Assembly (NCBI GenBank): GCA_017454295.1
Contig: JAFTDF010000004.1
Coordinates: forward strand, 118,776 to 182,775
Direction of reading: 5' to 3'
Origin: Bacilli bacterium
GTDB taxonomy: Bacteria > Bacillota_I > Bacilli_A > RFN20 > CAG-826
DNA: 64,000 nucleotides
In this document: one piece after another, positions 36,354-53,899 of the stretch
How positions within the stretch are numbered: position 1 is the first letter of the stretch
How the letters are laid out: the number at the start of each line of letters is the position of its first letter
The notes under the pieces: model-generated
Seen by the model: the letters and a program-made list of their open reading frames with translations, nothing else
Told to the model about the DNA's origin: nothing
Databases searched by the model: none
Position numbers and translations under genes: made by a program

Positions 36354-37673
36354 TTATTTCCCTAGGAAATCGATGATTTGCTCGGCCATGTAATCCAACA
36401 TCTCGTGGGTCATACCGGGATAGACGCCGATCCAGAAGGAATTGTTCATGATTTCATCGGTGACCTTCAAATCACCGACGACGCGGTAACCTTCCCCGCT
36501 TTCCCGCATCTGATCGAAGCAAGGATGGCGGAGCAAGTTCCCGGCAAAGAGGTTGCGGGTTTGGACACCATGGGATTCGAGATAACCGGTCATGTCGTTG
36601 CGGGTATAGGGCGCTTTCACATAGATGAGGAAGCCAAACCAGGAAGGATCGGCATTCTTCGTCGGCTCGGGAAGGATGATCTTATCGGCAACGCATTCGA
36701 GTTTTTCACGGAGATATTTCCAGTTCTCTTTACGCTTCTCGATGAAACCAGGGAGCTTTTCCAACTGGGCCACACCAACCGCGGCTTGCATCTCGGTAAT
36801 CTTGAGGTTGTAGCCGAATTCGGAATAGACGTATTTATGGTCAAAACCATAAGGCAAAGTGCCAAATTGACCGGTAAAGCGATGGCCGCAGAAATTATCT
36901 TTGCCCGAGGGGCAGATGCAATCGCGCCCCCAATCACGGAAGGATTTGCAGATACGGTTCAATAACGGATTGTTGGTATAGACGGCACCACCTTCGCCCA
37001 TCGTCATATGGTGGGCGGGATAGAAGGAGGAGGTTCCGATGTCGCCAATGGTGCCGGTATATTTCCATTCACCATCGATGAAATACTTGGTGCCTAAGGC
37101 ATCGCAGTTATCCTCAATCAACCAAAGGTTGTGCTTTTTGCAGAAATCGCGGACCGCCAAAAGGTCAAAGGCGTTGCCTAAGGTATGGGCGATCATGACC
37201 GCCTTGGTCTTGGGGCTAAGGGCCGCTTCCAATTGGTCGACGTCGATTTCATAACTGGGGAGTTTCACGTCGACGAAAACGGGAACGGCACCGTATTGGA
37301 TCATCGGGGTGACGGTGGTCGGGAAGCCGCAGGCAACGGTAATGACTTCGTCGCCGCGTTTGATTTGCCGTTCTTTTAAAGAAGGGGAAGTCAGCGTCAT
37401 AAACGCCAAAAGGTTAGCGCTAGACCCGGAAGTCGTCGCCAAGCAGAAGCGGGCACCGAGGAACTTCGCGAAATTCTTCTCGAACATCTCCACATAGCGG
37501 CCGGCGGTCAACCAAAAATCCAATGAGCTATCAACCAAATTCACCATTTCCTTCTCGTCGTAAACACGAGAGGCGTAGTGAATATAATCGCCTTTCACAT
37601 AAGGCTTTTTGTGGGCTTGTTGCTCTTGGAAATACTCCTTAACCAATACAAGGATTTGCTGACGTTTGTCCAT
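36354..37673 (-). CDS. rfbH: CDP-4-keto-6-deoxy-D-glucose 3-dehydrase (E1; RfbH/DdhC/AscC family, PMP and 2Fe-2S dependent)
   Basis: DegT fold with His in place of the PLP lysine (FYPAHHMTMGEGG) and a C-x-C-x7-C cluster motif (DCICPSGKDNFC); 439 aa. Confidence 0.8.
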   Translation of the reverse strand: MDKRQQILVLVKEYFQEQQAHKKPYVKGDYIHYASRVYDEKEMVNLVDSSLDFWLTAGRYVEMFEKNFAKFLGARFCLATTSGSSANLLAFMTLTSPSLKERQIKRGDEVITVACGFPTTVTPMIQYGAVPVFVDVKLPSYEIDVDQLEAALSPKTKAVMIAHTLGNAFDLLAVRDFCKKHNLWLIEDNCDALGTKYFIDGEWKYTGTIGDIGTSSFYPAHHMTMGEGGAVYTNNPLLNRICKSFRDWGRDCICPSGKDNFCGHRFTGQFGTLPYGFDHKYVYSEFGYNLKITEMQAAVGVAQLEKLPGFIEKRKENWKYLREKLECVADKIILPEPTKNADPSWFGFLIYVKAPYTRNDMTGYLESHGVQTRNLFAGNLLRHPCFDQMRESGEGYRVVGDLKVTDEIMNNSFWIGVYPGMTHEMLDYMAEQIIDFLGK

Positions 37674-37784: not shown

Positions 37785-38852
37785 TTAATTTTGGAAGAAT
37801 TCCCGGATTTCCTTGTCGGTTTCTTCGAGTAGGGCTTTCCGGTCTCCGGAGAGATAGACTTTCGTCCAATCGGCGACGAGCTTAAGGGCTTCGTCGATAT
37901 GGGTCCTCGGCTTCCAGCCAAAGACCCGTTTAATCTTCCCTGCGTCAAGTTTGAGGAAGTTGGCTTCGTGAGGGCCATTTGGATCCCCCACTTCCCAAGT
38001 GGCCTCGGGGCCATAAATCGCATCGAATTTTTGGATGAGATCACCTGTGGTGACGCAATCGCAATCGTCTGGTCCGACATTGTAATAGCCTGCGTGCGAG
38101 AAATCCTCATATTGGGCTTGGGCGATGGTCAGATAAACAAGCAACGGTTCCAGAACGTGCTCATAGGGGCGGGTGGAATTGGGATTACGGACAAATAGAG
38201 GTTTTCCCGCTTCGATGGCGCGGACGGCATCCGGAATGATACGGTCTAAAGCGAAATCCCCACCGCCGATGACGTTGCCGGCGCGGCAAGTAGAAACCGG
38301 AAGTTTAATCGGGTCGAAGAATGACTTCTTGTAAGAATGAGTCACGAGTTCCGAACAAGATTTGGAATTGGAGTAGGGATCGTACCCATCCAAAGGCTCG
38401 TCTTCGGTGAAGGCATGACCAGGGATATCGTTATTCAAATAGACCTTATCGGTGGTGACGTTGACCACGGATTTAACAAAGTTGGAGGTGCGCACCGCTT
38501 CCATCACATTCGCAGTGCCGATGACATTGGTTTCGTAGGTATATAGGGGTTCTTGATAAGACAAACGCACCAAAGGTTGAGCCGCCAAATGGAGGATGAT
38601 TTCCGGCTTATATTCATCCACGACCGCCTTAAAATGGGGATAATCGCGGATATCGCCGATGATGGAAATCATCTGGTCTTTTAGGCCAAGCAAGTCGAAT
38701 AAAGCGGGTTTGGTCGGGGGTTCCAAAGAATACCCCACCACTTTGGCACCGGCCAAAATCAAGATTCTCGATAACCAAGAACCTTTAAAGCCGGTATGAC
38801 CGGTGATGAGGACGGTTTTTCCTTTGTAAAAGGATAAGCTGAAATTAGTCAT
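37785..38852 (-). CDS. rfbG: CDP-glucose 4,6-dehydratase
   Basis: TGHTGFKGSWL Rossmann motif and YxxxK region. Start taken at MTNFSLSF (ATGACTAA overlap with the rfbF stop). The track M1 start 21 nt upstream is possible. Confidence 0.8.
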   Translation of the reverse strand: MTNFSLSFYKGKTVLITGHTGFKGSWLSRILILAGAKVVGYSLEPPTKPALFDLLGLKDQMISIIGDIRDYPHFKAVVDEYKPEIILHLAAQPLVRLSYQEPLYTYETNVIGTANVMEAVRTSNFVKSVVNVTTDKVYLNNDIPGHAFTEDEPLDGYDPYSNSKSCSELVTHSYKKSFFDPIKLPVSTCRAGNVIGGGDFALDRIIPDAVRAIEAGKPLFVRNPNSTRPYEHVLEPLLVYLTIAQAQYEDFSHAGYYNVGPDDCDCVTTGDLIQKFDAIYGPEATWEVGDPNGPHEANFLKLDAGKIKRVFGWKPRTHIDEALKLVADWTKVYLSGDRKALLEETDKEIREFFQN

Positions 38853-39621
38853 CCCAGGTCTTCCACGGGGCATCGCCCTCTTCCCACAGCTGCTCTAAGT
38901 AATCCTTATCGCGCTTGGTATCCATGCACTGCCAGAATCCTTTGTGATGGTAGGCAGCAGCCTTCTTGTCGGCGACGAGTTTGCCAATGGGGCCTTTTTC
39001 GAAGACCGTTTTATCCCCGGCGATGTATTTGATGACTTCCGGTTCGCAAACCATGAAACCGCCGTTGATCAAGGAACCATCTTGAATGGACTTTTCGCGG
39101 AACGCTTCAAGGGTTCCGTCTTTTCCGACTTCGATAATACCTTTGGTTTGGGACAAAGCGATGGAGGTGATGGTAATGGCCTTGCCGGTTTTCTTATGGA
39201 AGGCGAGAAGCTTATTTAAATCCACATCAGAAACGGCATCACCATAAGTCAGCATAAACGGCTCATTGCCGATATATTCCGCTGCCCGCTTGATACGACC
39301 GCCGGTCATGGTATTGAGCCCGGTGTCGAGAACGGTGACACGCCAAGGCTCGGCATGCTTTGCATGGACGATGACTTCATTATTCACCATATCGAAGGTG
39401 ACGTCGGAATGATGAAGGAAATAATTATTGAAATATTCCTTAATGACATATTGCTTATAGCCACCAAGAATCACGAAGTCATTGAAACCGTATTCGGAAT
39501 AATGCTTCATGATGTGCCAAATGATCGGCATATTGCCGATTTCAATCATGGGTTTGGGTTTGAACTGGGATTCTTCGCTGATGCGGGTCCCGTAACCACC
39601 GGCAAGGATTAATACTTTCAC
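38845..39621 (-). CDS. rfbF: glucose-1-phosphate cytidylyltransferase
   Basis: ILAGGYGTRI motif and the cytidylyltransferase-specific insertion WRVTVLDTGLNTMTGGRIKR; 258 aa. Confidence 0.85.
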   Translation of the reverse strand: MKVLILAGGYGTRISEESQFKPKPMIEIGNMPIIWHIMKHYSEYGFNDFVILGGYKQYVIKEYFNNYFLHHSDVTFDMVNNEVIVHAKHAEPWRVTVLDTGLNTMTGGRIKRAAEYIGNEPFMLTYGDAVSDVDLNKLLAFHKKTGKAITITSIALSQTKGIIEVGKDGTLEAFREKSIQDGSLINGGFMVCEPEVIKYIAGDKTVFEKGPIGKLVADKKAAAYHHKGFWQCMDTKRDKDYLEQLWEEGDAPWKTWDD

Positions 39622-39740: not shown

Positions 39741-41003
39741 CTATTCTTGGCTTTCCGGGTTCTCATTGGAAACGCGGCAGTTTTTGTTTTCCAAGACAAC
39801 AATCAAAACGAGACACAATGCGACTTCCACGCCTTCTGCAATCACCAAAGCATAAGACATCCCATCCATATAGAGCCCCTGGCACATCGGATAGGATATC
39901 GCCGCGCAGATGGCCAACCCCAGCGCAGCGGCAATCATCGTTTCCTTCCGCTTTCCCATGGCTCCCAAAATCTGCGTGACCACCGTCACCATCGCCGTGA
40001 AGGAGGTGGCGATGATGGCGCCTTTGAACACATAGGCATAGGGCATGATGATGTCACCGTAAACAAGTTTCAAAGCCCAGTCGCCGAGCCAAACGACGCC
40101 CAAGAACACCGCAGAGCAGAATGCAATCGCGACGAACACCACAAGCCCTGTGAATTTGAGAAAACCAGCCTTCTCTTTTTGCTCGTGGAGTTTGGCAAAA
40201 CGCGGCACCAGAGGCAGCATGACGGCGGACGCAACCGTCTGAATCAAAACGGCGATGTTCGCAATGGACGAGTAATAGCCAAGCTGTTCCGTGTCATAGA
40301 TTTTTTCAAAGAAAATACGGGGAAGCGAAGGCAATACGTTAGAAAGCAGCAAGAGAACGAAAAGCGGGAAGCAAGAAATCAAAACGGATTTGAGGGTTTT
40401 CCACGAATAAGCACGCCACTGAATGCGGAAACCAACCGCCTTTTTCGCCACGAATATATCCACCAAAGCCATGGCAATCCCGACCAAGGAAAGACCGATC
40501 AACGACCAGATCAACGATTTCGTCAAAACGGCAATCGCGGCGAAGATCCCCACGGAAAAAAGGCCTTTAATCGTCAACGTGATGCCACCCAAATATAGTT
40601 TGGAGTGCTTTTGCAAAACGCCTTGGTAGATATCGGAGACCAATTCGGTCCCTTTATAGACGTAATAAATCATGATGGCTGCGATGATCGACCAGGAGTA
40701 TTGCAAAGCAAGGCAATAGCCAAAGCAAATGAGAAAGCTGATTCCGGTGAGGATGAAACGAGAAATCACGTAATCGCTATCCGAATGTTCGTTGTTGACG
40801 TCGGCGGCATACCTCAATCGGAGATAATAGTTCCCAAACGACATCGCGATATTCGAAGCGACCAAGGCAAGGGTCAGCACACCCTGTGCCTCGACACTGA
40901 TGAATTTGGTGGTGAAAACCGTAATCAGCCAAAGCCCAAACAAATAGGCGAACTGCCCGATGAGGTTCCAAATCAACTCTTTACCTAAAGCACCCTTTTT
41001 CAT
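39741..41003 (-). CDS. polysaccharide flippase of the MOP/Wzx family
   Basis: 420 aa with 12 predicted TM helices, in glycan-locus context. Confidence 0.65.
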   Translation of the reverse strand: MKKGALGKELIWNLIGQFAYLFGLWLITVFTTKFISVEAQGVLTLALVASNIAMSFGNYYLRLRYAADVNNEHSDSDYVISRFILTGISFLICFGYCLALQYSWSIIAAIMIYYVYKGTELVSDIYQGVLQKHSKLYLGGITLTIKGLFSVGIFAAIAVLTKSLIWSLIGLSLVGIAMALVDIFVAKKAVGFRIQWRAYSWKTLKSVLISCFPLFVLLLLSNVLPSLPRIFFEKIYDTEQLGYYSSIANIAVLIQTVASAVMLPLVPRFAKLHEQKEKAGFLKFTGLVVFVAIAFCSAVFLGVVWLGDWALKLVYGDIIMPYAYVFKGAIIATSFTAMVTVVTQILGAMGKRKETMIAAALGLAICAAISYPMCQGLYMDGMSYALVIAEGVEVALCLVLIVVLENKNCRVSNENPESQE

Positions 41004-41021: not shown

Positions 41022-41933
41022 CTACTTCAAAGACGCGGCGACTTTCCGGATGCCTTCTTCGAAAGAAACGGTTGGGGCCCATCCGGTATCTTTCTTCAGT
41101 TCATCGACATGGGCACACATCTTCATGATTTGGTTGGGGGGATATTCAAGGGCGCCGAATTCGATCGGCAAATTAATGCCGAGCCATTGCGGAATCGGTT
41201 CGACGAAGCTACGAATCGTGCCGGTCACGCCACTGCCAAGTTCATAGGTCTTTCCATCAAGGCCCTTATCCGCGACGGCGGCGATAGCCCGCACCGCATC
41301 TTCGGTGTAGAGGAAATCCCAAATCTGCTCGCATTTAGTGAGTTTGGGAGACTCGCCTTTGAGCAAGGTGCTAACGATATATTGGGTCAACGATCCAGCA
41401 CCGGAAAAGGGACCATAGACCGAGAAAATACGAATCCAATTAAAGCGGATGCCGATCTGGCTGGCTTTGAGTTTTCCAAGCTGTCCCGCGGCGAGTTTGG
41501 CCATGCCGTATCCGGTTACTGGCATTAGCGGGCGATCCTCGGATTCGACGCCCTTGCCGTATTCAGCTTGGGATCCGGCGCCGACGAAGGCCTTGCAGCC
41601 CATACGTTTGGCCAAATCCAGGGCATCCATGACCCCTTTGATGTTTTGCACTTGAAGGGTGGTGTCGTCACGATTGGGGCCGAAGGTTCCGGCCCAGGAT
41701 AGATGAATGAAGGCATCGCAATCGGTGGGAATCTGCATCAGAGATGAATAATCCGTTAGGAGGCAATCGATGAAGGTAATCCGCTCGGGGTGGGAATAGG
41801 CTTTCGGGTTGGTGATTCCCGGCATATTCAGCAGCACACAATCGACGCCTTCCGAAGTGAACAGATTGGTTAAAGCCACGCCAATGGTTCCGGTGGCTCC
41901 CGAGATGACGACTTTTTTCAAATGATATGCCAT
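41022..41933 (-). CDS. NAD(P)-dependent extended-SDR epimerase/reductase (CDP-paratose/abequose-synthase-like or YerF-like)
   Basis: GATGTIG Rossmann motif and a YGMAK catalytic Y-x3-K; 303 aa. Confidence 0.7.
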   Translation of the reverse strand: MAYHLKKVVISGATGTIGVALTNLFTSEGVDCVLLNMPGITNPKAYSHPERITFIDCLLTDYSSLMQIPTDCDAFIHLSWAGTFGPNRDDTTLQVQNIKGVMDALDLAKRMGCKAFVGAGSQAEYGKGVESEDRPLMPVTGYGMAKLAAGQLGKLKASQIGIRFNWIRIFSVYGPFSGAGSLTQYIVSTLLKGESPKLTKCEQIWDFLYTEDAVRAIAAVADKGLDGKTYELGSGVTGTIRSFVEPIPQWLGINLPIEFGALEYPPNQIMKMCAHVDELKKDTGWAPTVSFEEGIRKVAASLK

Positions 41934-42109: not shown

Positions 42110-42880
42110 ATGCAAGTAGTCATTTTGGCAGGAGGGGAGGGCATCCACCTTCCGGGCAGCGGCATCACCACCGCCAAGGGTATGGTCAACGTTGGCAATC
42201 AGCCCATTTTGTGCCATATCATGGACCAATTCTCCGCTTATGGCCTCAACGATTTCGTCATTTGCGCCGGCAAACACCAAATGGAAATCAAGCAGTTTTT
42301 CCTCGATTACTATGTCCGAAATAACGATATCCTTGTCGATTTGGGAAGCAATACCGCCACCATTGAAACCAACCGGAAGAAACAATGGCGCGTACGCGTT
42401 GTCGATACTGGCGTCAACGTTGCCACCGGCGGACGCTTGAAGCGGGTGGCTTCCTATTTAAACCCGAAAGAGCCTTGCTTGGTTGCTTATGCTGATACCT
42501 TGGCCGATGTCGATATCAAATCTTTGATTGAACAGCATATTTCTAGCGGAAAAAAGGCAACCATAACCACTTATAACGCCTCCCAGAAATTCGGCGTCGT
42601 CGAAACCAAGCCCGATGGAACCGTCACTCAGTTCCGGAGCCGTAACGCCCAAAGCCTTTCGCTCATTAATATCGGGTTCATGGTTTTGGATCCTTCCGTG
42701 CTTGATTTGATCAACGGAGACGATATCGTCTTGGAAAAATACCCGTTGGAAGAGCTCGCGCGTCAAGGCCAGCTCGGCGCTTATGTCCATGAAGGTTTCT
42801 ACAGCAAACTTGACACATTAAACGACAAAGTCATGCTCGATAACCTCTTTGCAACCGGGCAAATTAAATTCGGTGCCTGA
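42110..42880 (+). CDS. divergent paralogue of glucose-1-phosphate cytidylyltransferase lacking the canonical G-x-G-T-R loop
   Basis: Shares the RfbF-specific insertion (WRVRVVDTGVNVATGGRLKR), but the N-terminus reads ILAGGEGIHLPGSGITTAKG. AAAGGAGA ribosome-binding site. Confidence 0.65.
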   Translation: MQVVILAGGEGIHLPGSGITTAKGMVNVGNQPILCHIMDQFSAYGLNDFVICAGKHQMEIKQFFLDYYVRNNDILVDLGSNTATIETNRKKQWRVRVVDTGVNVATGGRLKRVASYLNPKEPCLVAYADTLADVDIKSLIEQHISSGKKATITTYNASQKFGVVETKPDGTVTQFRSRNAQSLSLINIGFMVLDPSVLDLINGDDIVLEKYPLEELARQGQLGAYVHEGFYSKLDTLNDKVMLDNLFATGQIKFGA

Positions 42881-42882: not shown

Positions 42883-44649
42883 ATGACCAAAGGTTTCCTT
42901 TACGACGGACATTTGTTTTACGCGGATCTCTCGTTGGTTTCTTTGGAATCTCACTATCGCCTTTTCACCAAAGACAGTTACGAGGAAATCGTTGAACCGG
43001 AAGATATTTTCCACGCCAAGTCTTTTCGTTTAATCCTCGAGGACTATATCGAAAGTCTCATTGATCAAGACGCTGAACTATATGATTTCTTTGCCCGAGG
43101 GCTCTCAGACCCCATCCGTGGTTTGACGTCATTGACTTCCCTCTTCTCCAACGTAACCAGAACCAACGTCATCAAAGACTATCCCCAATATGAATCCGTT
43201 CTTTCCGACGGCGGCTTGAACTTCATGCGGTTCGTCGAAGGCTTTTTGCGTTTTTATCTATCTCGGGAACGGTTTGGATTCCTCAAAGCCGGACCGGGGA
43301 TGGATTTCGACCGCTTGAAATTGAAACTCCGCACGTTCCGGGCCACCTTGCTTCATCTCTTTCACAAAGTGGAGACCAACGTGCTAGAAAAACCGATTTC
43401 CGTCGAAAGCGAGCTCAATGTCGGCTTCTCCTGTGGACTCCTCGTCGACGATAGCCCCATTCGTTTCGAAGGCAACTATGCTTATCTCAACGATGTTCTC
43501 TTCGTGAAAGACGCCTATCTCGCCTTGCCTTATACGACTTCCACCAAAAAGAATAAACGCATTGGCGTCTATCAGCCCTCCCCCACTCCTTTGGCGAAGG
43601 AGCTGGATATCGATCCTTCCGAATTCCTATGCATCCCCATTTACTGTGGGTCGAGCCTCGTCTACTTTTATTTCAATGTCCATAACCTGAATAACGTCAT
43701 CGGCATTCTCAATCTTTTCACGAAGGTTCCTTATACCGAGCTGGAAGGAAAGAAGCCAGACATCATCGTCATCTTTGGTGGAAATAAAGGCGAATCCACT
43801 GGCACCTACTACTACGATGGGGATGGGGATTTCCTCGTCGGCTATGTTTCCGAAACCGAAGACGCCGATTATTTCGGCTACGTGAAAAAACTCATCCTCA
43901 CTTTGCACAACACGAGGATGATCAACCAAGGGTATCTGCCCATCCACGGCTCGATGATGGATATCATCATGAAGTCCGGCAAAGAAGTCAAAATCGTCAT
44001 CATGGGCGACTCTGGGGCTGGCAAATCCGAATCCATCGAAGCTTTCCGCAAGTTGGCAAAAGAATATCTAAAAGACATCAAAATCATCTTTGACGATATG
44101 GGCACCCTCTTCCTGACCAAGGACGGCGTCCGCGCTAGCGGAACCGAATCCGGCGCTTTTGTCCGTATCGACGACCTCGATATCGGATATGCGTTCTCCC
44201 ATATCAACGATTCCATTATTTATAATGCCGATCGGACCAATGCCCGCATCGTCTACCACGCCACCCCGTATGACGAAGTGGTCACCAAATGGCCCGTCGA
44301 TATCTTCCTTTATGCCAACAACTACGAAAAGAGCGAGGAAGGAATCCGCTTCCCCGAATCTTGGGAAGAAGTGGCCACCATTTGCGAAGAAGGCAAACGC
44401 ATGGCCAAAGGCACCACGGGAGAAGTCGGAATCGTCTCCTCTTATTTCGCCAACCCTTTCGGCCCCGTTCAAAACAAAGAAAAGACCCAAGAGTTGGTTA
44501 AGGAATACTTTGCCACAATGGCCAAGGACGGGACATCGTTAGGCATCATCTATACGCAACTCGGGTTGGAGAATATGAGCAAAATCGGCCCGGAGTTAGC
44601 CGCGAAAAAATTATTTGAATGGATCAATCAAAGCGAGGAAAAGCAATGA
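42883..44649 (+). CDS. 588-aa protein: novel N-terminal domain of about 330 aa fused to an HprK/P-like (PEPCK-fold) P-loop kinase domain
   Basis: The segment LPIHGSMMDIIMKSGKEVKIVIMGDSGAGKSESIEAFRKL...IIFDDMGTLF matches the HprK pattern IHG..v..G.gvLi.GdSGvGKSE..L...GH.LvaDD. Starts 2 nt after the rfbF-paralogue stop; the next gene start overlaps its stop (ATGA). Confidence 0.6.
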   Translation: MTKGFLYDGHLFYADLSLVSLESHYRLFTKDSYEEIVEPEDIFHAKSFRLILEDYIESLIDQDAELYDFFARGLSDPIRGLTSLTSLFSNVTRTNVIKDYPQYESVLSDGGLNFMRFVEGFLRFYLSRERFGFLKAGPGMDFDRLKLKLRTFRATLLHLFHKVETNVLEKPISVESELNVGFSCGLLVDDSPIRFEGNYAYLNDVLFVKDAYLALPYTTSTKKNKRIGVYQPSPTPLAKELDIDPSEFLCIPIYCGSSLVYFYFNVHNLNNVIGILNLFTKVPYTELEGKKPDIIVIFGGNKGESTGTYYYDGDGDFLVGYVSETEDADYFGYVKKLILTLHNTRMINQGYLPIHGSMMDIIMKSGKEVKIVIMGDSGAGKSESIEAFRKLAKEYLKDIKIIFDDMGTLFLTKDGVRASGTESGAFVRIDDLDIGYAFSHINDSIIYNADRTNARIVYHATPYDEVVTKWPVDIFLYANNYEKSEEGIRFPESWEEVATICEEGKRMAKGTTGEVGIVSSYFANPFGPVQNKEKTQELVKEYFATMAKDGTSLGIIYTQLGLENMSKIGPELAAKKLFEWINQSEEKQ

Positions 44650-46466
44650 AAGTCAAATTCTCGACCTATTTAGCAAAATGGTTGGTGGATCATGGCATCA
44701 CCACCAACTTCACCGTTCCTGGCGGCGGCGCTATGCATTTAAACAACTCCTTTGCGGCTGAGCCGGGTTTGAAGAACGTCTTCGTCCAGCATGAGCAAGC
44801 TGCTTCCATCGCCGCCGAAGGGTATTACCGCGAATGCAATCGTCTGCCTTTGGTTTGCGTGACCACCGGCCCGGGTGGGACCAACGCCATCACCGGCGTC
44901 CTTGGCGCATGGCTGGATTCTATTCCGATGTTAGTCATTTCCGGTCAGGTCAAATGGAGCACCACCGTCGCTTCCACCGGTTACCCTATGCGGATTTTCG
45001 GCGACCAAGAATACGATATCACGAAGCCCATGGCCCATATGACCAAATACGCCATGATGCTCACCGTTCCCGAAATGGCGCTTTACCATGTCGAAAAAGC
45101 CATCTATTTGGCCACCCATGGTCGCCCTGGACCAGTGTGGCTGGATATGCCTCACAACATCCAAGCGGCGATGATTGATCCCGACGAACTCATCCACTTC
45201 AATCCCGAAGAGCTCGCCAACACCAACCCCGGACCCGTTTCCGATCAAGTCATCGATTTACTCATCGAAAAGATCAAAGCCGCCAAGCGCCCCGTGCTTT
45301 ATAGCGGCATCGAAGTCCGCACCAGCGGTGATTACAAAGCCTTCCGTCAGCTTGTGGAACGCCTCAATATTCCCGTCGTCACCAGTTTTGATGGTGTCGA
45401 TATGTTAGAAGATTGCCATCCTTTGCACGCTGGCCGCGCTGGCGATGTCGCCACGCGCTATGGCAACTGGGCCGTCCAAAATAGCGACTTCCTGCTCGTG
45501 TTAGGTTCTCGTCTAGGCATCCGTCAGGTATCCTATGCCACCAAAACCTGGGCTCGAGAAGCCTTTGTGGCGATGGTCTATCCGGATTCTTTGGAGCTCA
45601 CCAAACCCAATGTCCATGTGGAGTTGCCGATCCGTGCCACCTATCAGGATTTCCTGGCCAAAATGCTCGCAAAAGTCCAGCAGCCGATGGAAAAACGCCA
45701 AGAATGGTTGGATATCATCGCCAAATGGAAAGAAGATTACCCCTTGGTCAGCGATCAGCAAAAAGCCCAAAAAGAACCGGCGAATATCTACGCCTTCTTT
45801 GAAGCGTTCTCCAAACTCTTGCCGGAAAATACCACCACCGTTGCATCAAACGGGTCTTGTGAAGCCGTCGGCGGAGCCGCCTACCAAATGAAAAAAGGCG
45901 GACGCTTCATCATCAACTCGGGTGCCGCTTCCATGGGCTATGGTTTGCCCGCGGCCATCGGCGCCGCGTTTGCTAACGGCAAAGAAGTCATCTGCCTCGA
46001 AGGCGATGGTTCCATCCAAATGAATTTGCAGGAACTCCAAACCATGGTGTTCCATCAGTTGCCGATCAAAATCGTCCTCATCAATAACGAAGGCTACCAT
46101 TCCATGCGGCAAACCCATGCCAATCTCTTTAAGGACTATCCCGCGAATGGTATCGGGCCGGAAAGCCAAGACCTGAGCTTCCCCAATATGGAAAAAATCG
46201 CTGGTGCCTATGGCATCCCCTACTTCAAAGTCACCAAAAACGAAGAAACCGAGTCCGTCAGCAAAGCCTTCCTTGCCCACAAGGGCTATGCCTTAATGGA
46301 AGTGTTCGTGGACAAAGACCAATTCTTCTTCCCCAAGCCTTCCGCGATGCGGCTCCCCGATGGAACGCTCATCTCGCCGCCGCTTGAAGACATGGCGCCC
46401 TTCCTCCCGCGGGAAGAACTCGAAAAAATCATGATCATCCCCCTCGTTGATAACCAAAAGAAATAA
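44646..46466 (+). CDS. thiamine-diphosphate-dependent acetolactate-synthase-like enzyme (YerE-like branched-sugar-forming candidate)
   Basis: 606 aa. N-terminal Pyr domain, central TPP_enzyme_M domain and a C-terminal ThDP-binding GDGS-x24-NN motif (LEGDGSIQMNLQELQT...LINNEGY). GAGGAAAAG ribosome-binding site. Confidence 0.75.
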   Translation: MKVKFSTYLAKWLVDHGITTNFTVPGGGAMHLNNSFAAEPGLKNVFVQHEQAASIAAEGYYRECNRLPLVCVTTGPGGTNAITGVLGAWLDSIPMLVISGQVKWSTTVASTGYPMRIFGDQEYDITKPMAHMTKYAMMLTVPEMALYHVEKAIYLATHGRPGPVWLDMPHNIQAAMIDPDELIHFNPEELANTNPGPVSDQVIDLLIEKIKAAKRPVLYSGIEVRTSGDYKAFRQLVERLNIPVVTSFDGVDMLEDCHPLHAGRAGDVATRYGNWAVQNSDFLLVLGSRLGIRQVSYATKTWAREAFVAMVYPDSLELTKPNVHVELPIRATYQDFLAKMLAKVQQPMEKRQEWLDIIAKWKEDYPLVSDQQKAQKEPANIYAFFEAFSKLLPENTTTVASNGSCEAVGGAAYQMKKGGRFIINSGAASMGYGLPAAIGAAFANGKEVICLEGDGSIQMNLQELQTMVFHQLPIKIVLINNEGYHSMRQTHANLFKDYPANGIGPESQDLSFPNMEKIAGAYGIPYFKVTKNEETESVSKAFLAHKGYALMEVFVDKDQFFFPKPSAMRLPDGTLISPPLEDMAPFLPREELEKIMIIPLVDNQKK

Positions 46467-46476
46467 GGAGAATCCC

Positions 46477-47484
46477 ATGAACATCACCGTACTTGATTGC
46501 ACCCTTCGCGACGGTTGCTATATCTGCAACTCCAACTTTGGCGCGGACACCATTCGCGGCATCATTCAAAAACTCGAACAAGCCGGCACCGAAATCATCG
46601 AAATCGGCTGGCTGAAAGACAAAGCCCATACCCCGGGGACCGCCTTCTATCATTTACCCGAAGACGCTAAGCAATACATGGGCAAGAAAGACCCCCACTT
46701 CTCTTATGTCGTGATGATCGACTGGGACCGTTATAACCTCGACAATTTACCCGTCAATGACGGCACCGCGATCGATGCGATCCGTGTGGTCTTCCCCCAC
46801 GGCAAACATCATGAAGGCATCGAAGTCGGCAAAGCCGTGAAAGCCAAAGGCTATGACCTTTATCTGCAAGCCGCCAACACGCTTGCGTATAGCAACGAAG
46901 ACCTCATCGATCTTTGTGCTTGCATCAACGAAGCCAAACCCATCGCCATTTCCATCGTCGATACCTTTGGAGCCATGTATCCCGAAGACCTGAAGCGTAT
47001 CGCCGAAGTGATGGATGCCCATTTGGATCCGGAAATCAAAATCGGATTCCATTCCCATAACAACCAGCAATTGTCTTTTGCCCTTTCCATCCAATTTGCG
47101 GAAATGTTCCAAAACTCCAAGCGGGACATCATGATCGATGCTTCCTTGACCGGCATGGGCCGCGGCGCGGGCAACACCACCACCGAATTGCTCATCTCTT
47201 ACCTCAACCGCAAGCAAGGCAAGAACTACGACATGAATGCGATTCTTGCCGCGATCGACCAATATATGGTCCCTCTGCAAAAACAATACGAATGGGGTTA
47301 TTCCATTCCTTACTTCATCTCCGGCACCCACTGCGCCCACGTCAATAACTTGGCTTACCTCCTTGAGAAGCATCAAGCCAGCAACGAAGACATCTGGGAC
47401 ACGTTTGAAAACGAGAAACCCGAAGATCGTCTCAAATACGATTACGACGTGCTCGAAGCCTGCTATCAATCTCGGAAAAAATAA
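46477..47484 (+). CDS. HMGL-like (DRE-TIM metallolyase) aldolase/synthase
   Basis: N-terminal LDCTLRDGCY, as in 4-hydroxy-2-oxovalerate aldolase / isopropylmalate-synthase-like enzymes. HSHNN metal site. AAGGAG ribosome-binding site. Confidence 0.7.
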   Translation: MNITVLDCTLRDGCYICNSNFGADTIRGIIQKLEQAGTEIIEIGWLKDKAHTPGTAFYHLPEDAKQYMGKKDPHFSYVVMIDWDRYNLDNLPVNDGTAIDAIRVVFPHGKHHEGIEVGKAVKAKGYDLYLQAANTLAYSNEDLIDLCACINEAKPIAISIVDTFGAMYPEDLKRIAEVMDAHLDPEIKIGFHSHNNQQLSFALSIQFAEMFQNSKRDIMIDASLTGMGRGAGNTTTELLISYLNRKQGKNYDMNAILAAIDQYMVPLQKQYEWGYSIPYFISGTHCAHVNNLAYLLEKHQASNEDIWDTFENEKPEDRLKYDYDVLEACYQSRKK

Positions 47485-48120
47485 ATGAAAGTCTTTTACG
47501 ATTTGGATGGGACGTTGCTCGACTCTAAGGGTGAAATCGTCTACACGATTGAAAAAGCTTTGGAGGAGAATGGCTTTTCTCTTGCCGATGCGATCCATCC
47601 GATTCGTATCGGTCCGCCCCTGAAGCAGATTCTTTTGAATTCCTATCCAGAAGGTTTCTTTTCGGAAGAGGACCTTGCCAAAATCAACCGTTCCATGCGG
47701 CGGATTTACGATAGTTCCGATTACCATATGACCCCGCCCTACCCAGGAGTGGTAGAACTTTTGGCTACCACCCCCTACGAGAGTTATGTGCTGACGAATA
47801 AGCCGCACTCCGCCACCGATCGGATAGTGGAAATCAAGGGGTGGTCCAAGTATTTCAAAGGGATCTTTGTTCCCGACTCCTCCAAAGGAGAGAGCAAGGA
47901 AACGATTCTGCGGGACCTCAAAAAACAATTCCCAAACGAGACGATCGTAATGGTTGGCGACACCATCAGTGACACGGGCTCCGCCCAAAAAGCTGGCGTG
48001 AAAGCCGTTGGCGTCCTTTGGGGCGAAGGAACGAAAGAAGAGCTGCTTCCTACGGAACCGGACTATTGTGTTTCGTCCTTAGACGACTTAAAACGAGCTC
48101 TGATCGAATTGGCTAGATAA
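47485..48120 (+). CDS. HAD-superfamily phosphatase (phosphoglycolate-phosphatase-like subfamily IA)
   Basis: YDLDGTLLDS motif I, T/S motif II and GDTISD motif III. The ATG abuts the aldolase stop. Confidence 0.75.
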   Translation: MKVFYDLDGTLLDSKGEIVYTIEKALEENGFSLADAIHPIRIGPPLKQILLNSYPEGFFSEEDLAKINRSMRRIYDSSDYHMTPPYPGVVELLATTPYESYVLTNKPHSATDRIVEIKGWSKYFKGIFVPDSSKGESKETILRDLKKQFPNETIVMVGDTISDTGSAQKAGVKAVGVLWGEGTKEELLPTEPDYCVSSLDDLKRALIELAR

Positions 48121-49965: not shown

Positions 49966-51166
49966 GGGGCGATGTCTCCCGACGACGATGAATCGCAAAC
50001 TCTATGGGGTTGACGATTAAAAGCAAAGCCTCCGCCACAAGCGAAGCAGCAAGGAACATCTCGCCATAATAGAACTGTTTCCCATGATGGAACCCGAATA
50101 AGAACAACATCAGAATCAACGAGGGGAGATAGCGTAAAGTGCGCCACTGATTACGGCTGCAAATCAAGAGCAGGAAAACGGGCAGGCAATAGGCGCAAGA
50201 ATAGGTGCCGGCGGTCCCCGGGAAGAACATCATTGCAAGAAAACACACCAAGGCCGATTCATAATCTTCCTTCGTGAAGAACAAAGCCAAGAGCACCACT
50301 ACCAAAAGCGCCAATTGCAAGATGGTGGCCCCAGTTCCTTGGATTGCGCCATTTCCAATGAAAAGCATCACAATATTTGAGAGGAACGGATTGGTGGTTT
50401 GTCCTTCCGAAAATAGAAATACCTGGCGAATTAGCAAATAGCAGCCTTCCGCTCCACCGTATACTACAAAAGGCACAAAGAACAGTAGCATGGAATAAAC
50501 CGCGGTTTTCACAAAACCGATGTAGTCTTTTTTCTTCAATAGAAAAAACGCAAAGACAACGGGATAGATTTTAATGGTAATTGAAAGGGCCAAGGCGAAA
50601 ATTGACAATTCGCGAACCCACGCCTTGTCGTGATCCCGGTAAGCAAAGAAAGCGACCAATAGCACGACGGAGGCAAGCAAAACGTTCCCCCGTTCAAAAG
50701 CGTAAAGCAAGGGATATGAGATCAGACAAAGGAGGAACACGAGCAAAGAAACGCCTTTTCTTTCGTTCCGGAGCAAGCGCCGAATGGAAAAATACAAAAC
50801 GATGGCGCAGGTTAGGAAGAATAACGTCAACTCAATCATGGCCGGGGCACATTGCCGCATCAAATAGCGCTGTTCAAAGGGGAGGCGAAGGATATTATCC
50901 GGCACGAATTTACTCATGAAATGGAAATACAGCGCCACCAACGGAGGGTAAATCGTGTGGTATTCCGTATAAGTGTTAAGTTCGGCATTATCGCGGACCG
51001 AATTCAAGTAGTCCATGAAGATATCCGCGCCACCATAGAAGAATACATCGGCATAAAAATTCTTATTGGTGAGCACGCCGGCGACAAAAACACTGACGAA
51101 AGAAGTGGCAAGAAGGATGGCCATCACCAGCAAGAACACCAAAGAAGGTTTCACATATTTCCTCAT
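49958..51166 (-). CDS. DUF2029/GT87-like polytopic membrane glycosyltransferase candidate (paralogue of 58177..59442)
   Basis: Shared motifs with the paralogue: FERGN, KIYPVVF, LLKKK. Confidence 0.55.
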   Translation of the reverse strand: MRKYVKPSLVFLLVMAILLATSFVSVFVAGVLTNKNFYADVFFYGGADIFMDYLNSVRDNAELNTYTEYHTIYPPLVALYFHFMSKFVPDNILRLPFEQRYLMRQCAPAMIELTLFFLTCAIVLYFSIRRLLRNERKGVSLLVFLLCLISYPLLYAFERGNVLLASVVLLVAFFAYRDHDKAWVRELSIFALALSITIKIYPVVFAFFLLKKKDYIGFVKTAVYSMLLFFVPFVVYGGAEGCYLLIRQVFLFSEGQTTNPFLSNIVMLFIGNGAIQGTGATILQLALLVVVLLALFFTKEDYESALVCFLAMMFFPGTAGTYSCAYCLPVFLLLICSRNQWRTLRYLPSLILMLFLFGFHHGKQFYYGEMFLAASLVAEALLLIVNPIEFAIHRRRETSPHA

Positions 51167-52950
51167 TGGACCCCTCCTTTAAAATTCATGCTGGTAAGGA
51201 AAAAATACAACGGACGGATGTCCTCGGTTTCCTCAACCTTTTTATCAAAAATGCATTGGATAAAATAATTCTCGTTTTTATTGAAGTTAGGCAAAGACAC
51301 CTCGTTTTGGTTTTCGGTGCAAGCAGCATGATATTTCTCCACTCCGTCGACATAAATCGTCATCGTACCGCCGAATTGTGCATCGGTAATGAACCAATGG
51401 AAGAACAGGGTCTCGCTATCTCCAGAGTTCAAAAGCACACGGAAATTCTCGCCACACCAATGGTCAAATGCCGGATCCTGGGGCGCTTGATACCCGCTTA
51501 ATCCGTAATAATAACCCGTTGTATAAAAATCATTGGTGATTGGGGCGGTAGAGAACATATCAAAACGGTTCTTACGCAGGGTGGTGACGTAATTAAAGGA
51601 CTCTTGTTGGTTCAAGCCGATGCAACTGTTTCCTTCGTCGTCAACCGCAATATCAGCCGGCTTGCCCGCCGTTTTTAAAGCATATAAGGCTTGAGGATCC
51701 GAGTTCCAAAAACCATAACGGGCCGTCCCATAGGAACCAAGGGCAGACACCGAGACGCAAATCGCTAAGAGAACCGCCCCGCAACCAACGAGCAAATTGG
51801 TCCGATCTTTTTTTCCTTCGCGGGCTGGCCGATGGGAGAAGAAAGTTTTGAGGTCGCAAGCACAAAGCGTGGCACCGGCAAGGAAAAACAACGTGAATGC
51901 CGCATCGTAATCGTTGGCCATAGGATGGGCATTGAATAAACCGTGCCACAAACACAGGGAAATCAGTCCGATTTTCGCCAAAAAGGGAACCAGCGAATCG
52001 GCAAGCCCACGACGGACATCCAAAACGCAACAAGCCACGAGGCAGGCAAACATAATGGAACCAAAGAGAATAATCCCAACGTGGATGAGTTTCGCCAAAA
52101 GCTGAAGAGCCGCGATATCCGTCTTCCAAATCGTTAGGCTCCCGAACGAATTCGGCGCCAAAGAAGAGAGGACGTTGAGTAGATAATCTTTGAAAGAGAA
52201 GTCAGAAAAGCTGGGTAAAAGCGAAGAACCGGATGCCCAATAAATCGATTGATGGGCAATAAAAAGGATTGCCGAAACGGCGAAAAGAATGAGCGCGTTG
52301 CGCCGTCTTAGGCCTTTTACCCACGAGTAGACCAAATAAGCAAAACCCATCAGTAAGGCGATGAATGTGAAGCTTGATGCAAGCAAGAAACAGGAAAGCA
52401 CCGAGAAAGCACAAGGGAGGATCCAGTATTTAAGACGCGGGTTCTCATTGGACAAGAAGCGTCGTAATGACCAGAAATAACCTAGCAAAACAAGCGCGGA
52501 GAGATAAAGATAAGGGCCGGAAGGGGAACTGTTTCCGTTGAGTGGGTTAAAGAAGACAAAGCCGAAGAAAAACAGGCCGACGACCCGCAAGTAGAAAGGT
52601 GTTTGTTCGCCGATTAATAGCCGACCGGCAAAAATCCAATATAAGATGGCCAATACCACATAGATCAAGGCAAGGCCGAAACGGAAAAAGCCTGAGGGTC
52701 CTAACCAGCGGATGAACGGTTCGAAAAAAAGCAATCCGTTCCCTTGGGAAGTCCATAGACCGTTATTCTCAGAAATCGCATGGAACCATCCCTGCGTTTC
52801 AGGGATTGCGAAGAAAAAATAAAGGAAAGTTCCGATTCCGAAAACCAGGGCGGAAAGAAGCCAGAGGAAGGGCTCTTTCTTAAGGTGGCTTAGGAAAGAC
52901 GTCCAACAAGTGACTAAACTGGGTTTTTGTGGCAAATCAGTCGTCGTCAT
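51163..52950 (-). CDS. polytopic membrane protein with a C-terminal extracytoplasmic domain (GT-C-like)
   Basis: 595 aa; GAGGAGGAGAGG ribosome-binding site. Similar architecture to 48142..49965. Confidence 0.55.
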   Translation of the reverse strand: MTTTDLPQKPSLVTCWTSFLSHLKKEPFLWLLSALVFGIGTFLYFFFAIPETQGWFHAISENNGLWTSQGNGLLFFEPFIRWLGPSGFFRFGLALIYVVLAILYWIFAGRLLIGEQTPFYLRVVGLFFFGFVFFNPLNGNSSPSGPYLYLSALVLLGYFWSLRRFLSNENPRLKYWILPCAFSVLSCFLLASSFTFIALLMGFAYLVYSWVKGLRRRNALILFAVSAILFIAHQSIYWASGSSLLPSFSDFSFKDYLLNVLSSLAPNSFGSLTIWKTDIAALQLLAKLIHVGIILFGSIMFACLVACCVLDVRRGLADSLVPFLAKIGLISLCLWHGLFNAHPMANDYDAAFTLFFLAGATLCACDLKTFFSHRPAREGKKDRTNLLVGCGAVLLAICVSVSALGSYGTARYGFWNSDPQALYALKTAGKPADIAVDDEGNSCIGLNQQESFNYVTTLRKNRFDMFSTAPITNDFYTTGYYYGLSGYQAPQDPAFDHWCGENFRVLLNSGDSETLFFHWFITDAQFGGTMTIYVDGVEKYHAACTENQNEVSLPNFNKNENYFIQCIFDKKVEETEDIRPLYFFLTSMNFKGGVQ

Positions 52951-53899
52951 TGATCCTCTCCTCCTCTACGACGAAAGGCCGATGGAGGACACGCGTGTTG
53001 ATTTGCAAGACATATTCGCCCACCATGCCCAAGAAGAAGAGGATGATGCCGGTGAAGATGGCCGAGGAAGTAATAATCGGATAAACAATGCTCGGATGGG
53101 CGGTGCCATTGGCGATCGCGATAAAAAGGAACACCAGATACACCACAAGGCCGGCAAAGCCAAGGAATCCGAGGAACGCGCCGACAAACGTGGCGATGCG
53201 GACGAAGAACTTGGTATAAGAAGTGATGCCATTCATGGCCATGTCGTAAAGGGTACCGAAATTGTTGTGGCTCTTGCCGGCACGACGTTCGGGTTGGACA
53301 TATTCAATGCGGGTCATCTTGTAGCCGAGTTCGGCAACGATGCCACGCATATAGGGGTAAGGATCGTCGAGGCCGGCCAACACCTGAATAAAACTTTGGT
53401 CATACAGCCCAAAACCCGTGAAATTCTCGATTTGTTCAACATCGGAGATCCGGTGGATAATGTGGTAATAAAGCTTCCGGATGGCGTGCACGATGGGGTT
53501 GGTTTTGCTCTTTTTCTTCGTGCCGACGATGACACGATAGCCTTCTTCCCATTTATGGACGAACTCGGGAATTAATTCCGGGGGGTCTTGGAAGTCGGCG
53601 CACATCAGCATCACCAAATCGCCCTTAGCTTGCGTTAGCGCATGATAGGGAGAACGGATATGCCCGAAGTTTTTGGCATTAAAAATGCAACGTACGTCTT
53701 TGTCCTCTGCGCAAATCTCACGCAATAAAGCCCGTGTATTATCGGTAGAGCAGTTATCAATAAAAAGGATTTTGGTCCGATAATTCGGTAATTGTTCGTT
53801 GGTGACCCGACGAATTTCGGCCACTAAAGGTTTGACGTTTTCCTCTTCGTTGTAGCAGCCAATAACGATCTCCAATGTCTTTTTAGTTTCTTGGTCCAT
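52937..53899 (-). CDS. GT2 polyprenyl-phosphate glycosyltransferase (GtrB/DPM1-like) with two C-terminal TM helices
   Basis: DxD (IDNCSTD), a DPM1-like catalytic core, and a C-terminal membrane anchor. Confidence 0.85.
   Translation of the reverse strand: MDQETKKTLEIVIGCYNEEENVKPLVAEIRRVTNEQLPNYRTKILFIDNCSTDNTRALLREICAEDKDVRCIFNAKNFGHIRSPYHALTQAKGDLVMLMCADFQDPPELIPEFVHKWEEGYRVIVGTKKKSKTNPIVHAIRKLYYHIIHRISDVEQIENFTGFGLYDQSFIQVLAGLDDPYPYMRGIVAELGYKMTRIEYVQPERRAGKSHNNFGTLYDMAMNGITSYTKFFVRIATFVGAFLGFLGFAGLVVYLVFLFIAIANGTAHPSIVYPIITSSAIFTGIILFFLGMVGEYVLQINTRVLHRPFVVEEERINDDD

Follow-up and report, generated by a model that had tools for sequence, protein, structure and literature searches.

The 64,000-nucleotide stretch analysed here (hereafter the window; positions 118,776 to 182,775 of the forward strand of contig JAFTDF010000004.1, assembly GCA_017454295.1) comes from an uncultured Bacilli bacterium and carries, at 46477–48120, adjacent genes for a DRE-TIM aldolase and a phosphatase of the HAD superfamily, which stand at the end of a five-gene block that also encodes a thiamine diphosphate (ThDP)-dependent enzyme. 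With somewhat better than even confidence, we read these two enzymes as makers of the donor in a pathway to an acyl-branched 3,6-dideoxyhexose, a cell-surface sugar of this bacterium. The reading draws on the class of the ThDP enzyme, on the recurrence of the aldolase–ThDP gene pair in many genomes and on published precedent for the same combination of enzymes.

The aldolase, the phosphatase and their ThDP partner

The block (42110–48120) consists, from 5′ to 3′, of the following genes:

42110..42880, + strand: RfbF paralogue (cytidylyltransferase-like), 256 aa, nucleoside triphosphate (NTP) loop GGEGIH; TIGR02623 match under cut-off
42883..44649, + strand: enzyme of predicted phosphoenolpyruvate carboxykinase (PEPCK) fold, 588 aa, earlier called an 'HprK-like kinase'; AlphaFold2 (AF2), Foldseek and hhalign
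44646..46466, + strand: predicted YerE-like ThDP-dependent carboligase, 606 aa; three TPP domains and JanthE match
46477..47484, + strand: DRE-TIM (HMGL-like) aldolase, 335 aa, standalone form of a 3dxi-like subfamily; PF00682 and motifs
47485..48120, + strand: HAD-IA phosphatase, C1-cap, phosphoglycolate-phosphatase-like, 211 aa; HAD_2, motifs I and IV

The last two genes close the operon, and the whole block is tightly packed, with successive junctions of 2 nt, an ATGA overlap, 10 nt and 0 nt. No promoter- or terminator-like signals above chance were found inside 42110–48120, and the GC content and composition of the block are those of its flanks. A preliminary description, made from the sequence of the window, had the aldolase and phosphatase genes follow the ThDP gene with overlapping or abutting start and stop codons. 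This holds for the phosphatase, whose ATG (47485) is the base right after the aldolase stop codon TAA (47482–47484), but not for the aldolase, whose ATG at 46477 is separated from the ThDP stop at 46466 by a 10-nt spacer with a ribosome-binding site (GGAG at 46467–46471). Both proteins are 100% identical to deposited entries (MBQ9457061 and MBQ9457062, on a 193.6-kb contig of a metagenome-assembled genome labelled 'Bacilli bacterium') that bear generic names only. Family matches, these identical deposited proteins and more than 7,500 aldolase homologues (protein search, E ≤ 1e-5) mark the two as real genes rather than chance open reading frames (ORFs).

The aldolase passes the gathering threshold of the Pfam HMGL-like family PF00682 (72 bits, cut-off 29) and shows the sequences LDCTLRDG and FHSHNN; it has the Arg-Asp motif and the two His ligands of the DRE-TIM metallolyase superfamily, of which it is a member. 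Among solved structures 3dxi (E 3e-31), the N-terminal domain of a 'putative aldolase' of Bacteroides vulgatus, is the closest to it, and 4-hydroxy-2-oxovalerate aldolases of the DmpG type rank behind (E 1e-15 to 1e-13); a Foldseek search with the model of an aldolase homologue likewise matched 3dxi and DmpG. Residues R11, D12, H192 and H194, invariant across the family, align with the residues that stabilise the enolate (Arg) and bind the metal in DmpG-type enzymes. Identity as LeuA, homocitrate synthase or citramalate synthase was rejected (weak partial NCBIfam matches, far under the cut-offs), as was phosphonate chemistry of the phosphonomethylmalate synthase/PEP (phosphoenolpyruvate) mutase kind: neither PEP mutase nor phosphonopyruvate decarboxylase was present, and the ThDP enzyme belongs to the three-domain, YerE-like type. 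Since the metal- and enolate-binding residues are kept and all equivalog scores fall far under their cut-offs, the protein appears to be a competent DRE-TIM metallolyase of an uncharacterised subfamily.

The downstream protein matches HAD_2 (82 bits, cut-off 23.8) and TIGR01549 HAD-SF-IA-v1 (26.6 bits, cut-off 23.3), and its motifs I (DLDGT) and IV (GDTISD) place it within HAD-IA. The earlier assignment of the region to a DRE-TIM metallolyase and a type-IA HAD phosphatase was thus confirmed for both genes by PF00682, HAD_2 and the motifs. The nearest solved structures to the HAD protein are uncharacterised HAD phosphatases and PGP. Phosphoglycolate phosphatase (Gph) was rejected as its identity, the protein remaining under every NCBIfam equivalog cut-off (75 bits vs 225 and 67 vs 180).

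The ThDP gene starts at ATG 44646 and not at 44619 as called by the ORF finder, because the ATGA overlap with the upstream TGA, a ribosome-binding site (GAGGA), the length of the NCBI protein (606 aa) and the JanthE alignment all point to this start. All three TPP domains were recognised by Pfam. The enzyme aligns end to end with JanthE (PDB 8rph; E 1.7e-120, 407 bits), compared with about 226 bits and about 1e-65 for acetolactate synthases (AHAS), and the JanthE alignment extends over its C-terminal tail (DGTLISPPLEDMAPFLPRE...). JanthE has been described as a YerE-like enzyme (PMC12188165), and among decarboxylase-type ThDP enzymes only the YerE-like ones are known to transfer acyl anions onto isolated ketones, their physiological role being sugar branching (PMC12247030). 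By sequence, the ThDP enzyme is accordingly classed as YerE-like, an assignment made through JanthE.

Recurrence of the gene pair and three cluster architectures

A pattern scan of 185,579 species genomes produced 177 loci encoding an aldolase relative, of which the best 80 were taken with up to 10 kb per side; 41 of the 80, with at least 6 kb on both sides of the aldolase homologue, formed a well-flanked set. The 80 loci came from Lachnospiraceae, Oscillospiraceae, Ruminococcus, Butyrivibrio, Roseburia, Selenomonadaceae, Erysipelotrichaceae, Christensenella, Treponema/Spirochaetia and Succinivibrio. A homologue of the ThDP enzyme was detected by tblastn in 62 of them, and clustering of neighbouring ORFs across the same loci returned, as the commonest families, the aldolase in 72, the ThDP enzyme in 59, a short-chain dehydrogenase/reductase (SDR) in 40, RfbF and RfbH in 39 each, a GT2 glycosyltransferase in 36 and RfbG in 35. 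Where both aldolase and ThDP genes were called, they lay on the same strand (56/56 loci), with the ThDP gene directly downstream in 32 of the 56. The well-flanked set (n = 41) gave ThDP 35, SDR 26, RfbF 26, RfbH 24, GT2 24, RfbG 23 and HAD 9. Clusters with a fused aldolase are also carried by cultured organisms, among them Butyrivibrio sp. MB2005, Eubacterium ruminantium FB3002, Selenomonas felix and Acutalibacter sp. 1XD8-33.

Three architectures were distinguished. Type I runs RfbF-RfbG-RfbH-aldolase (with a C-terminal domain)-ThDP-(HAD)-SDR-GT2. Type II has an invariant triple of short SDR, DHQS-like enzyme and FGGY kinase directly upstream of a fused aldolase (L002, L006, L015, L016, L025, L032-L034, L039, L044, L055, L065, L075 and L076); the ThDP enzymes of five of these loci (L002, L006, L015, L033 and L075) are the closest to that of the window outside its own lineage, at 58–63% identity. 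Type III is that of the window, with a standalone aldolase, a HAD gene and the pair of RfbF paralogue and PEPCK-fold gene, and it occurs in five gene orders: one is that of the window and L001 (83% aldolase identity), and the others are those of L081, L084 and L085 (62%), of L086 (aldolase 31%, PEPCK-fold enzyme 55%), of L169 and of a degraded copy, L170.

Because the type III set recurs in five gene orders, the five-gene block is a conserved functional unit. The linkage of aldolase and HAD to the ThDP enzyme, the RfbF paralogue and the supposed kinase, which the preliminary description had drawn from a single locus, therefore extends across genomes and gene orders; its proviso, that homologues of the two genes might never be found beside these partners elsewhere, is clearly contradicted by a ThDP gene in 35 of the 41 well-flanked loci and by the recurrent five-gene set. 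Both the RfbF paralogue and the PEPCK-fold gene are absent from 72 of the 80 aldolase/ThDP loci. The aldolase–ThDP pair is thus a widespread core, and the other two genes are accessories of a few related lineages. Collectively, the variable accessories (HAD; SDR with DHQS-like enzyme and FGGY kinase; an FkbM methyltransferase; the RfbF paralogue with the PEPCK-fold gene) fit lineage-specific tailoring of a side chain.

Homologues of the HAD gene are found in every window-type locus, and most of the nine well-flanked loci that have one are without a dedicated kinase. Since HAD recurs in type I loci without such a kinase, the phosphate probably enters on an aldehyde of central metabolism, for example glyceraldehyde-3-P, as judged by analogy.

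The aldolase of 72 of the 80 loci measures about 538 aa and joins the TIM barrel to a Rossmann-like C-terminal domain of about 200 aa. This domain (residues about 340–538 of P0010, and 71 other loci, e.g. L002-L080) bears the motifs VLLIAPGKS, KRGWxHFDN, AGFDGF and YNESYAD, matches no Pfam family and weakly resembles SteA (NCBIfam SteA E 1.3e-5; PDB 9hmz E 0.17); whole-protein Foldseek matches of a fused aldolase were dominated by the TIM barrel. The window aldolase stops exactly at the linker and lacks the whole domain, and its presence elsewhere in the window was ruled out, as tblastn found none.

The proposed acceptor sugar, the accessory pair and the glycan region

On the minus strand, to both sides of the block, lie genes for a nucleotide-activated sugar and for its presumed export:

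36354..37673, − strand: RfbH (E1), CDP-6-deoxy-D-xylo-4-hexulose 3-dehydrase; NF011936 708 bits, cut-off 423
37785..38873, − strand: RfbG, CDP-glucose 4,6-dehydratase; TIGR02622 396 bits, cut-off 278
38845..39621, − strand: RfbF, glucose-1-phosphate cytidylyltransferase; TIGR02623 362 bits, cut-off 300
39741..41003, − strand: multi-pass membrane protein, 420 aa, flippase-like; no Pfam match, role suggested by composition and context
41022..41933, − strand: extended SDR, 303 aa, candidate branch-ketone reductase (YerF/ErwF role); Pfam Epimerase 118 bits
48142..52950, − strand: three large GT-C-like multi-pass membrane proteins (618, 402 and 595 aa); weak PMT_2 match and GT87 match
52937..53899, − strand: GT2 polyprenyl-phosphate glycosyltransferase (PgfS/ArnC-like); Pfam Glycos_transf_2

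Scores over the curated family cut-offs identify RfbF, RfbG and RfbH as the enzymes for making cytidine diphosphate (CDP)-4-keto-3,6-dideoxy-D-glucose, the natural acceptor of YerE and ErwE. The preliminary description had the keto-acid-derived unit handed to the RfbF paralogue. This is probably not so, given that 72 of the 80 loci do without both the paralogue and the 'kinase'; the ThDP enzyme most likely couples the unit to CDP-4-keto-3,6-dideoxyglucose, the product of the neighbouring RfbF, RfbG and RfbH.

The paralogue scores 249 bits against TIGR02623 (cut-off 300) and is 41% identical to the true RfbF of the window. A canonical glucose-1-phosphate cytidylyltransferase was rejected for 42110–42880 on this score and on its altered GxGTR loop. 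All five paralogues compared (window; L001; L081, 7231–8001; L086, 8227–8997; L169, 378–1145) read GGxG(I/V)H(L/F)P where RfbF has GGxGTR(L/I)S, so that T14 and R15 of Salmonella typhi RfbF, which hold the triphosphate, are replaced by I/V and H in 5/5. The clade shows further changes (W to C in ILWHIM, GFW to G(F/Y)Y), conserved at 54–70% mutual identity, and the altered loop is a case of conserved rewiring, not of decay. The paralogue always lies directly upstream of the PEPCK-fold gene, and the pair is translationally coupled. In the degraded locus L170 (8976–11506) a frameshifted pair was seen, with NTP-transferase frames half RfbF-like (63%) and half paralogue-like (53–56%) and a split PEPCK-fold gene, followed by an RfbG-like gene.

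No Pfam family, PF01293 included, matched the 588-aa product of the second gene, and its NCBIfam PEPCK score was 24 bits against a cut-off of 369. Because a search of PDB sequences with the PEPCK-like profile returned spurious PPR-repeat matches only, the fold was taken from AF2 and Foldseek: the model (predicted local distance difference test, pLDDT, 86) gave ATP- and GTP-PEPCKs as top matches (E 5e-15), and the top 50 were all PEPCKs. Alignment to Escherichia coli Pck with hhalign mapped the YxGxxKK motif, the P-loop and the DD motif onto family-invariant residues, K335/K336, H355, K381/S382, D404/D405 and R455 being the counterparts of K212/K213, H232, K254/T255, D268/D269 and R333. The N-terminal 270 residues did not align to E. 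coli Pck, in which this region carries the oxaloacetate site (E. coli R65). More than 1,800 matches define a family of proteins of about 575 aa with no Pfam family and an unalignable N-terminal domain. Location in a sugar cluster was limited to relatives of at least 54% identity; 80 metagenome loci with relatives of at most 53% identity had no genes of the block, no sugar genes and no conserved neighbourhood, and a metagenome scan with the PEPCK-like profile returned housekeeping relatives of at most 53% only and no further sugar-cluster examples. A class I/II aminotransferase gene directly precedes PEPCK-fold relatives in two loci (L082 and L087). The window also encodes a class I/II aminotransferase at 59445–60626 (− strand), 11 kb from the block.

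The protein had been described as an HprK-like kinase, and this identity was ruled out by the PEPCK fold and residues: there is no HprK domain match, and the likeness is limited to the P-loop GDSGAGKSE. To judge from the model and the aligned residues, it resembles a housekeeping enzyme that interconverts oxaloacetate and PEP and has been recruited to the cluster, not a hydroxyl kinase. The kinase/phosphatase logic proposed for the block, with a hydroxyl kinase acting opposite the phosphatase, is consequently not supported, given the PEPCK fold, the PEPCK catalytic residues and an otherwise housekeeping family.

As to export, the 420-aa membrane protein clusters with membrane proteins of 11 aldolase loci, and the GT2 enzyme matches the NCBIfam models PgfS (164 bits) and ArnC-like (103 bits), both under cut-off. 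The three GT-C-like proteins are, from their context, probable extracytoplasmic transferases for a lipid-linked sugar. The downstream genes (GT-C-like, GT2 and acyltransferases) follow the usual Gram-positive arrangement of loading onto undecaprenyl phosphate, flipping and attachment outside.

These genes lie in a glycan region of about 27.8–59.4 kb that also encodes a Wzy_C/O-antigen-ligase-like protein, a GH3 glycosidase (30846–33404), two Acyl_transf_3 proteins (54058–55140 and 55993–57258) and, in all, five large GT-C-/GT87-like membrane proteins; parts of the region were listed at 27824–29641, 48142–52950 and 58177–59448. Its start is flanked by tRNA genes at 25894–25980 and 29736–29904, namely Leu-CAA (+), Arg-CCG (−) and Leu-CAG (−). 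Just upstream of rfbH, 33893–36289 (−) encodes a GmhA-like SIS protein and an HddA-like GHMP kinase, both under their equivalog cut-offs, as well as the phosphoglycerate mutase GpmA (327 bits, cut-off 305). These genes may serve a second, heptose-type sugar of the same glycan; homologous blocks occur without them. A heptose pathway (GmhA/HddA-like genes, 33893–35532) was also considered as the reason for the HAD gene and the RfbF paralogue and was rejected as a general explanation, because the homologous blocks in L081, L086 and L169 have no such genes nearby.

Proposed pathway, rival explanations and significance

The closest published precedent is erwiniose of Pectobacterium atrosepticum, whose cluster encodes ErwI (a BphI-like DRE-TIM aldolase), ErwJ (acetaldehyde dehydrogenase), ErwE (YerE-like) and ErwF (reductase); ErwE refuses pyruvate and accepts 4-hydroxy-2-oxo acids (Steitz et al. 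2022, PMC9306805). Clusters of aldolase, ThDP enzyme and reductase have also been proposed for caryophyllose, gastriose and a Rhodopseudomonas sugar, with polyhydroxylated C6–C8 2-keto-3-deoxy acids as the presumed donors (PMC9306805). Among the defining features of an erwiniose-type scheme that were tested, RfbF/RfbG/RfbH, a YerE-like ThDP enzyme and an adjacent pyruvate aldolase were found, and an E3 reductase was the exception.

As the window holds, apart from an E3 reductase and with the SDR as candidate branch reductase, every element of the erwiniose-type scheme, we infer the following steps from homology, neighbourhood and precedent. Following the scheme for erwiniose, caryophyllose and gastriose, the DRE-TIM aldolase would add a metal-bound pyruvate enolate to an aldehyde, and the resulting 4-hydroxy-2-oxo acid would be decarboxylated on ThDP by the YerE-like enzyme, which would place the acyl anion onto C4 of the CDP-keto-sugar. 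The SDR (41022–41933) would then reduce the branch ketone, and the GT2, flippase-like and GT-C-like membrane proteins would see to export and attachment of the sugar. Less confidently, the aldehyde may be a phosphorylated sugar aldehyde and the aldol product a phospho-ulosonate resembling KDPG or Kdo-8-P; the HAD enzyme might then dephosphorylate this product, in analogy to KdsC of the Kdo pathway, and the PEPCK-fold enzyme might be a source of oxaloacetate or PEP. The preliminary description was right to place the aldolase and the phosphatase outside the canonical dideoxyhexose pathway, and its suggestion of C-C bond formation and a branched, keto-acid-derived moiety agrees with the aldolase plus YerE-like scheme (PMC9306805). 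Its view that the chemistry could not be inferred from sequence was too cautious, since direct published precedent for aldolase, YerE-like enzyme and reductase makes part of it inferable (PMC9306805).

Several observations weigh against the proposed pathway. An orthologue of DmpG, BphI or ErwI was excluded (TIGR03217 88 bits vs 286; NF006049 99 vs 229), and Tyr15, invariant in the family, occupies the position of the catalytic His of DmpG (His21). Neither Pfam scans of the larger ORFs of the window nor the conserved neighbours in the 80 loci yielded an E3/DdhD-type reductase (FNR-like, 2Fe-2S) for RfbH; such a gene may lie elsewhere. In 6 of the 41 well-flanked loci (L011, L017, L058, L063, L067 and L076) a fused aldolase stands in a glycan locus with no ThDP enzyme within 10 kb, so that the aldolase family can work without one. 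The C-terminal domain of the fused aldolases could bind a nucleotide sugar, which would favour an aldolase working on the CDP-sugar itself. The substrate assigned to the HAD enzyme, probably the phosphorylated aldol product with its phosphate removed as by KdsC, comes purely by analogy. Lastly, the published branched-sugar scheme offers no role for the pair of RfbF paralogue and PEPCK-fold enzyme. Conceivably, the pair provides the aldolase with oxaloacetate, a decarboxylative source of enolpyruvate, or ensures a PEP-driven supply of cytidine nucleotide. A more far-reaching and doubtful idea is that it forms an undescribed two-enzyme unit, which would combine PEP-driven delivery of oxaloacetate to the aldolase with regeneration or hand-over of cytidine nucleotide, or open a route to a CDP-linked enolpyruvyl or ulosonate compound; the unit would replace the C-terminal domain of the other aldolases, and an acidic or phosphorylated long-branch sugar of a new class would result on Gram-positive walls.

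The same pair is central to the model of the preliminary description, which we regard as unlikely while giving it some credence. There the product of the five-gene block is an activated unit of its own, not a hexose: an intermediate is phosphorylated by the PEPCK-fold enzyme, its carbon skeleton comes from the aldolase and the ThDP enzyme, HAD trims a phosphate, and the RfbF paralogue turns the phosphate ester so formed into a CDP-linked donor, much as ulosonic acids or heptoses are activated. Coupling of the paralogue and the PEPCK-fold gene in every arrangement, and only with standalone aldolases plus HAD, speaks for such a unit, as do the conserved change of the NTP loop to GxGIH, a sign of a new substrate, and L086, with no RfbF or RfbG within 9 kb. 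However, 72 of the 80 loci have aldolase and ThDP genes without the paralogue or the PEPCK-fold enzyme and with canonical RfbF, RfbG and RfbH; all PEPCK catalytic residues are kept, in a housekeeping family without sugar context; YerE-like enzymes are known only as carboligases onto ketones (PMC12247030); and the block is always accompanied by RfbH and the SDR. A little less probable still is the reversed order of steps, in which the ThDP enzyme adds an acetyl branch from pyruvate to the CDP-keto-sugar, as YerE does, and the aldolase then extends or modifies this branch on the nucleotide-linked sugar. Steitz et al. explicitly considered this order (PMC9306805), and it would suit the fusion of most aldolases to a Rossmann-like domain with weak resemblance to SteA/TPK-type nucleotide-binding proteins and the six loci with aldolase and CDP-sugar genes and no ThDP enzyme (e.g. 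L011 of Roseburia faecis, where two RfbF copies, RfbG and RfbH lie beside the aldolase). For ErwE, however, it was tested and rejected because pyruvate was not accepted (PMC9306805); the window aldolase is without the C-terminal domain, and the known enolisation substrates of DRE-TIM enzymes are small alpha-keto acids or acetyl-CoA and not ketones bound to a sugar.

Two further explanations were considered. One, which we consider very improbable, is a pyruvate shunt: the PEPCK-fold enzyme would convert PEP to oxaloacetate, and the DRE-TIM protein, as an oxaloacetate decarboxylase, would supply pyruvate to a plain YerE for a yersiniose-type acetyl branch, HAD being an unrelated housekeeping enzyme. 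The conserved PEPCK catalytic core would agree with this, and the DRE-TIM superfamily does include oxaloacetate decarboxylase and carboxyltransferase domains, to which weak NCBIfam and Foldseek matches were obtained; yet the shunt would have no obvious purpose in a fermentative Bacilli bacterium in which pyruvate is abundant, and it leaves unexplained both the aldolase–ThDP association in 72 loci without the PEPCK-fold gene and the conserved accessory sets (HAD, FGGY kinase, DHQS-like, SDR). The other, that aldolase and phosphatase are unrelated metabolism inserted by chance, has generic annotations only in its favour; it is contradicted by the co-occurrence data, that is, by recurrent co-localisation in many lineages and five gene orders, as well as by operon-tight spacing and flank-like composition, and we give it almost no credence.

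We now return to the acyl-branched dideoxyhexose pathway and its relation to known systems. With the erwiniose cluster the window shares a DRE-TIM aldolase beside a YerE-like enzyme and, with the SDR as candidate, a reductase, the genes for CDP-4-keto-3,6-dideoxyglucose and, as proposed, an aldolase-made 4-hydroxy-2-oxo acid as ThDP donor. It differs in the aldolase, which belongs to the 3dxi-like subfamily, has Tyr for the catalytic His and misses the DmpG/BphI cut-offs; in the lack of an ErwJ/DmpF-type dehydrogenase and the addition of HAD, the PEPCK-fold enzyme and the altered RfbF paralogue; and in a Gram-positive host with export genes of the GT2/GT-C type, not those of a lipopolysaccharide (LPS) O-antigen. 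The closest characterised relatives of the window aldolase, DmpG/DmpF and BphI/BphJ, have the same DRE-TIM fold, Arg/Asp/His/His set and pyruvate-enolate chemistry. These systems are, however, catabolic, with an obligate dehydrogenase partner and a catalytic His, whereas the window aldolase has Tyr and no partner and lies far under their equivalog cut-offs; a DmpF-type aldehyde dehydrogenase was found neither in the window block (Pfam) nor among the conserved neighbours of the aldolase loci.

Yersiniose A of Yersinia pseudotuberculosis (YerE/YerF) offers the same CDP-3,6-dideoxy-4-keto acceptor genes, a YerE-like carboligase and a reductase, for which the SDR is the candidate in the window, but YerE takes pyruvate directly and needs neither aldolase nor phosphatase; the aldolase being a constant neighbour, the donor here is expected to be longer than acetyl. 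Long polyhydroxylated branches are built by an aldolase and a ThDP enzyme for caryophyllose (Mycobacterium marinum MMAR_2331/2332) and gastriose (Mycobacterium gastri MygI/MyGE/MygF) from C6–C8 2-keto-3-deoxy acids, donors of the sort suggested for the window, although MMAR_2331 belongs to the HpcH/citrate-lyase aldolase family, not to DRE-TIM, and no phosphatase or PEPCK-like gene is reported in those clusters. The presence of a phosphatase recalls the logic of ulosonic acids (Kdo: KdsA, KdsC, KdsB; Kdn-9-P phosphatase), in which a HAD phosphatase acts after the aldol-type condensation onto a phosphorylated sugar aldehyde, and in the window, too, a cytidylyltransferase is encoded in the same operon. 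The likeness is one of analogy: KdsA differs in fold and takes PEP as its substrate, KdsC belongs to HAD-IIIA (C0) and not to the C1-cap HAD-IA enzymes, and KdsB and RfbF are not related.

The known acyl-branched sugars, among them yersiniose, erwiniose and caryophyllose, occur in Gram-negative LPS and in mycobacterial lipooligosaccharides. Our literature search found no paper on a Firmicutes or Bacilli version of the aldolase plus YerE-like system, nothing specific on 3dxi or on this gene combination, and none that gives the 3dxi-like aldolase subfamily a function. If the proposed pathway is correct, the aldolase plus YerE-like logic would be common in gut and rumen Firmicutes, in Selenomonads and in some Spirochaetes (177 loci, more than 7,500 homologues), and undescribed long-branch deoxysugars would be predicted on the surfaces of abundant commensals. 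Two accessory modules, the pair of altered RfbF and PEPCK-like enzyme and the triple of short SDR, DHQS-like enzyme and FGGY kinase, are flagged as unexplained. The proposal would further provide new YerE-like enzymes, together with matched donor-making aldolases, for the enzymatic synthesis of tertiary alcohols, and would give a function to a large DRE-TIM subfamily named only 'aldolase catalytic domain-containing protein', including the structural-genomics entry 3dxi.

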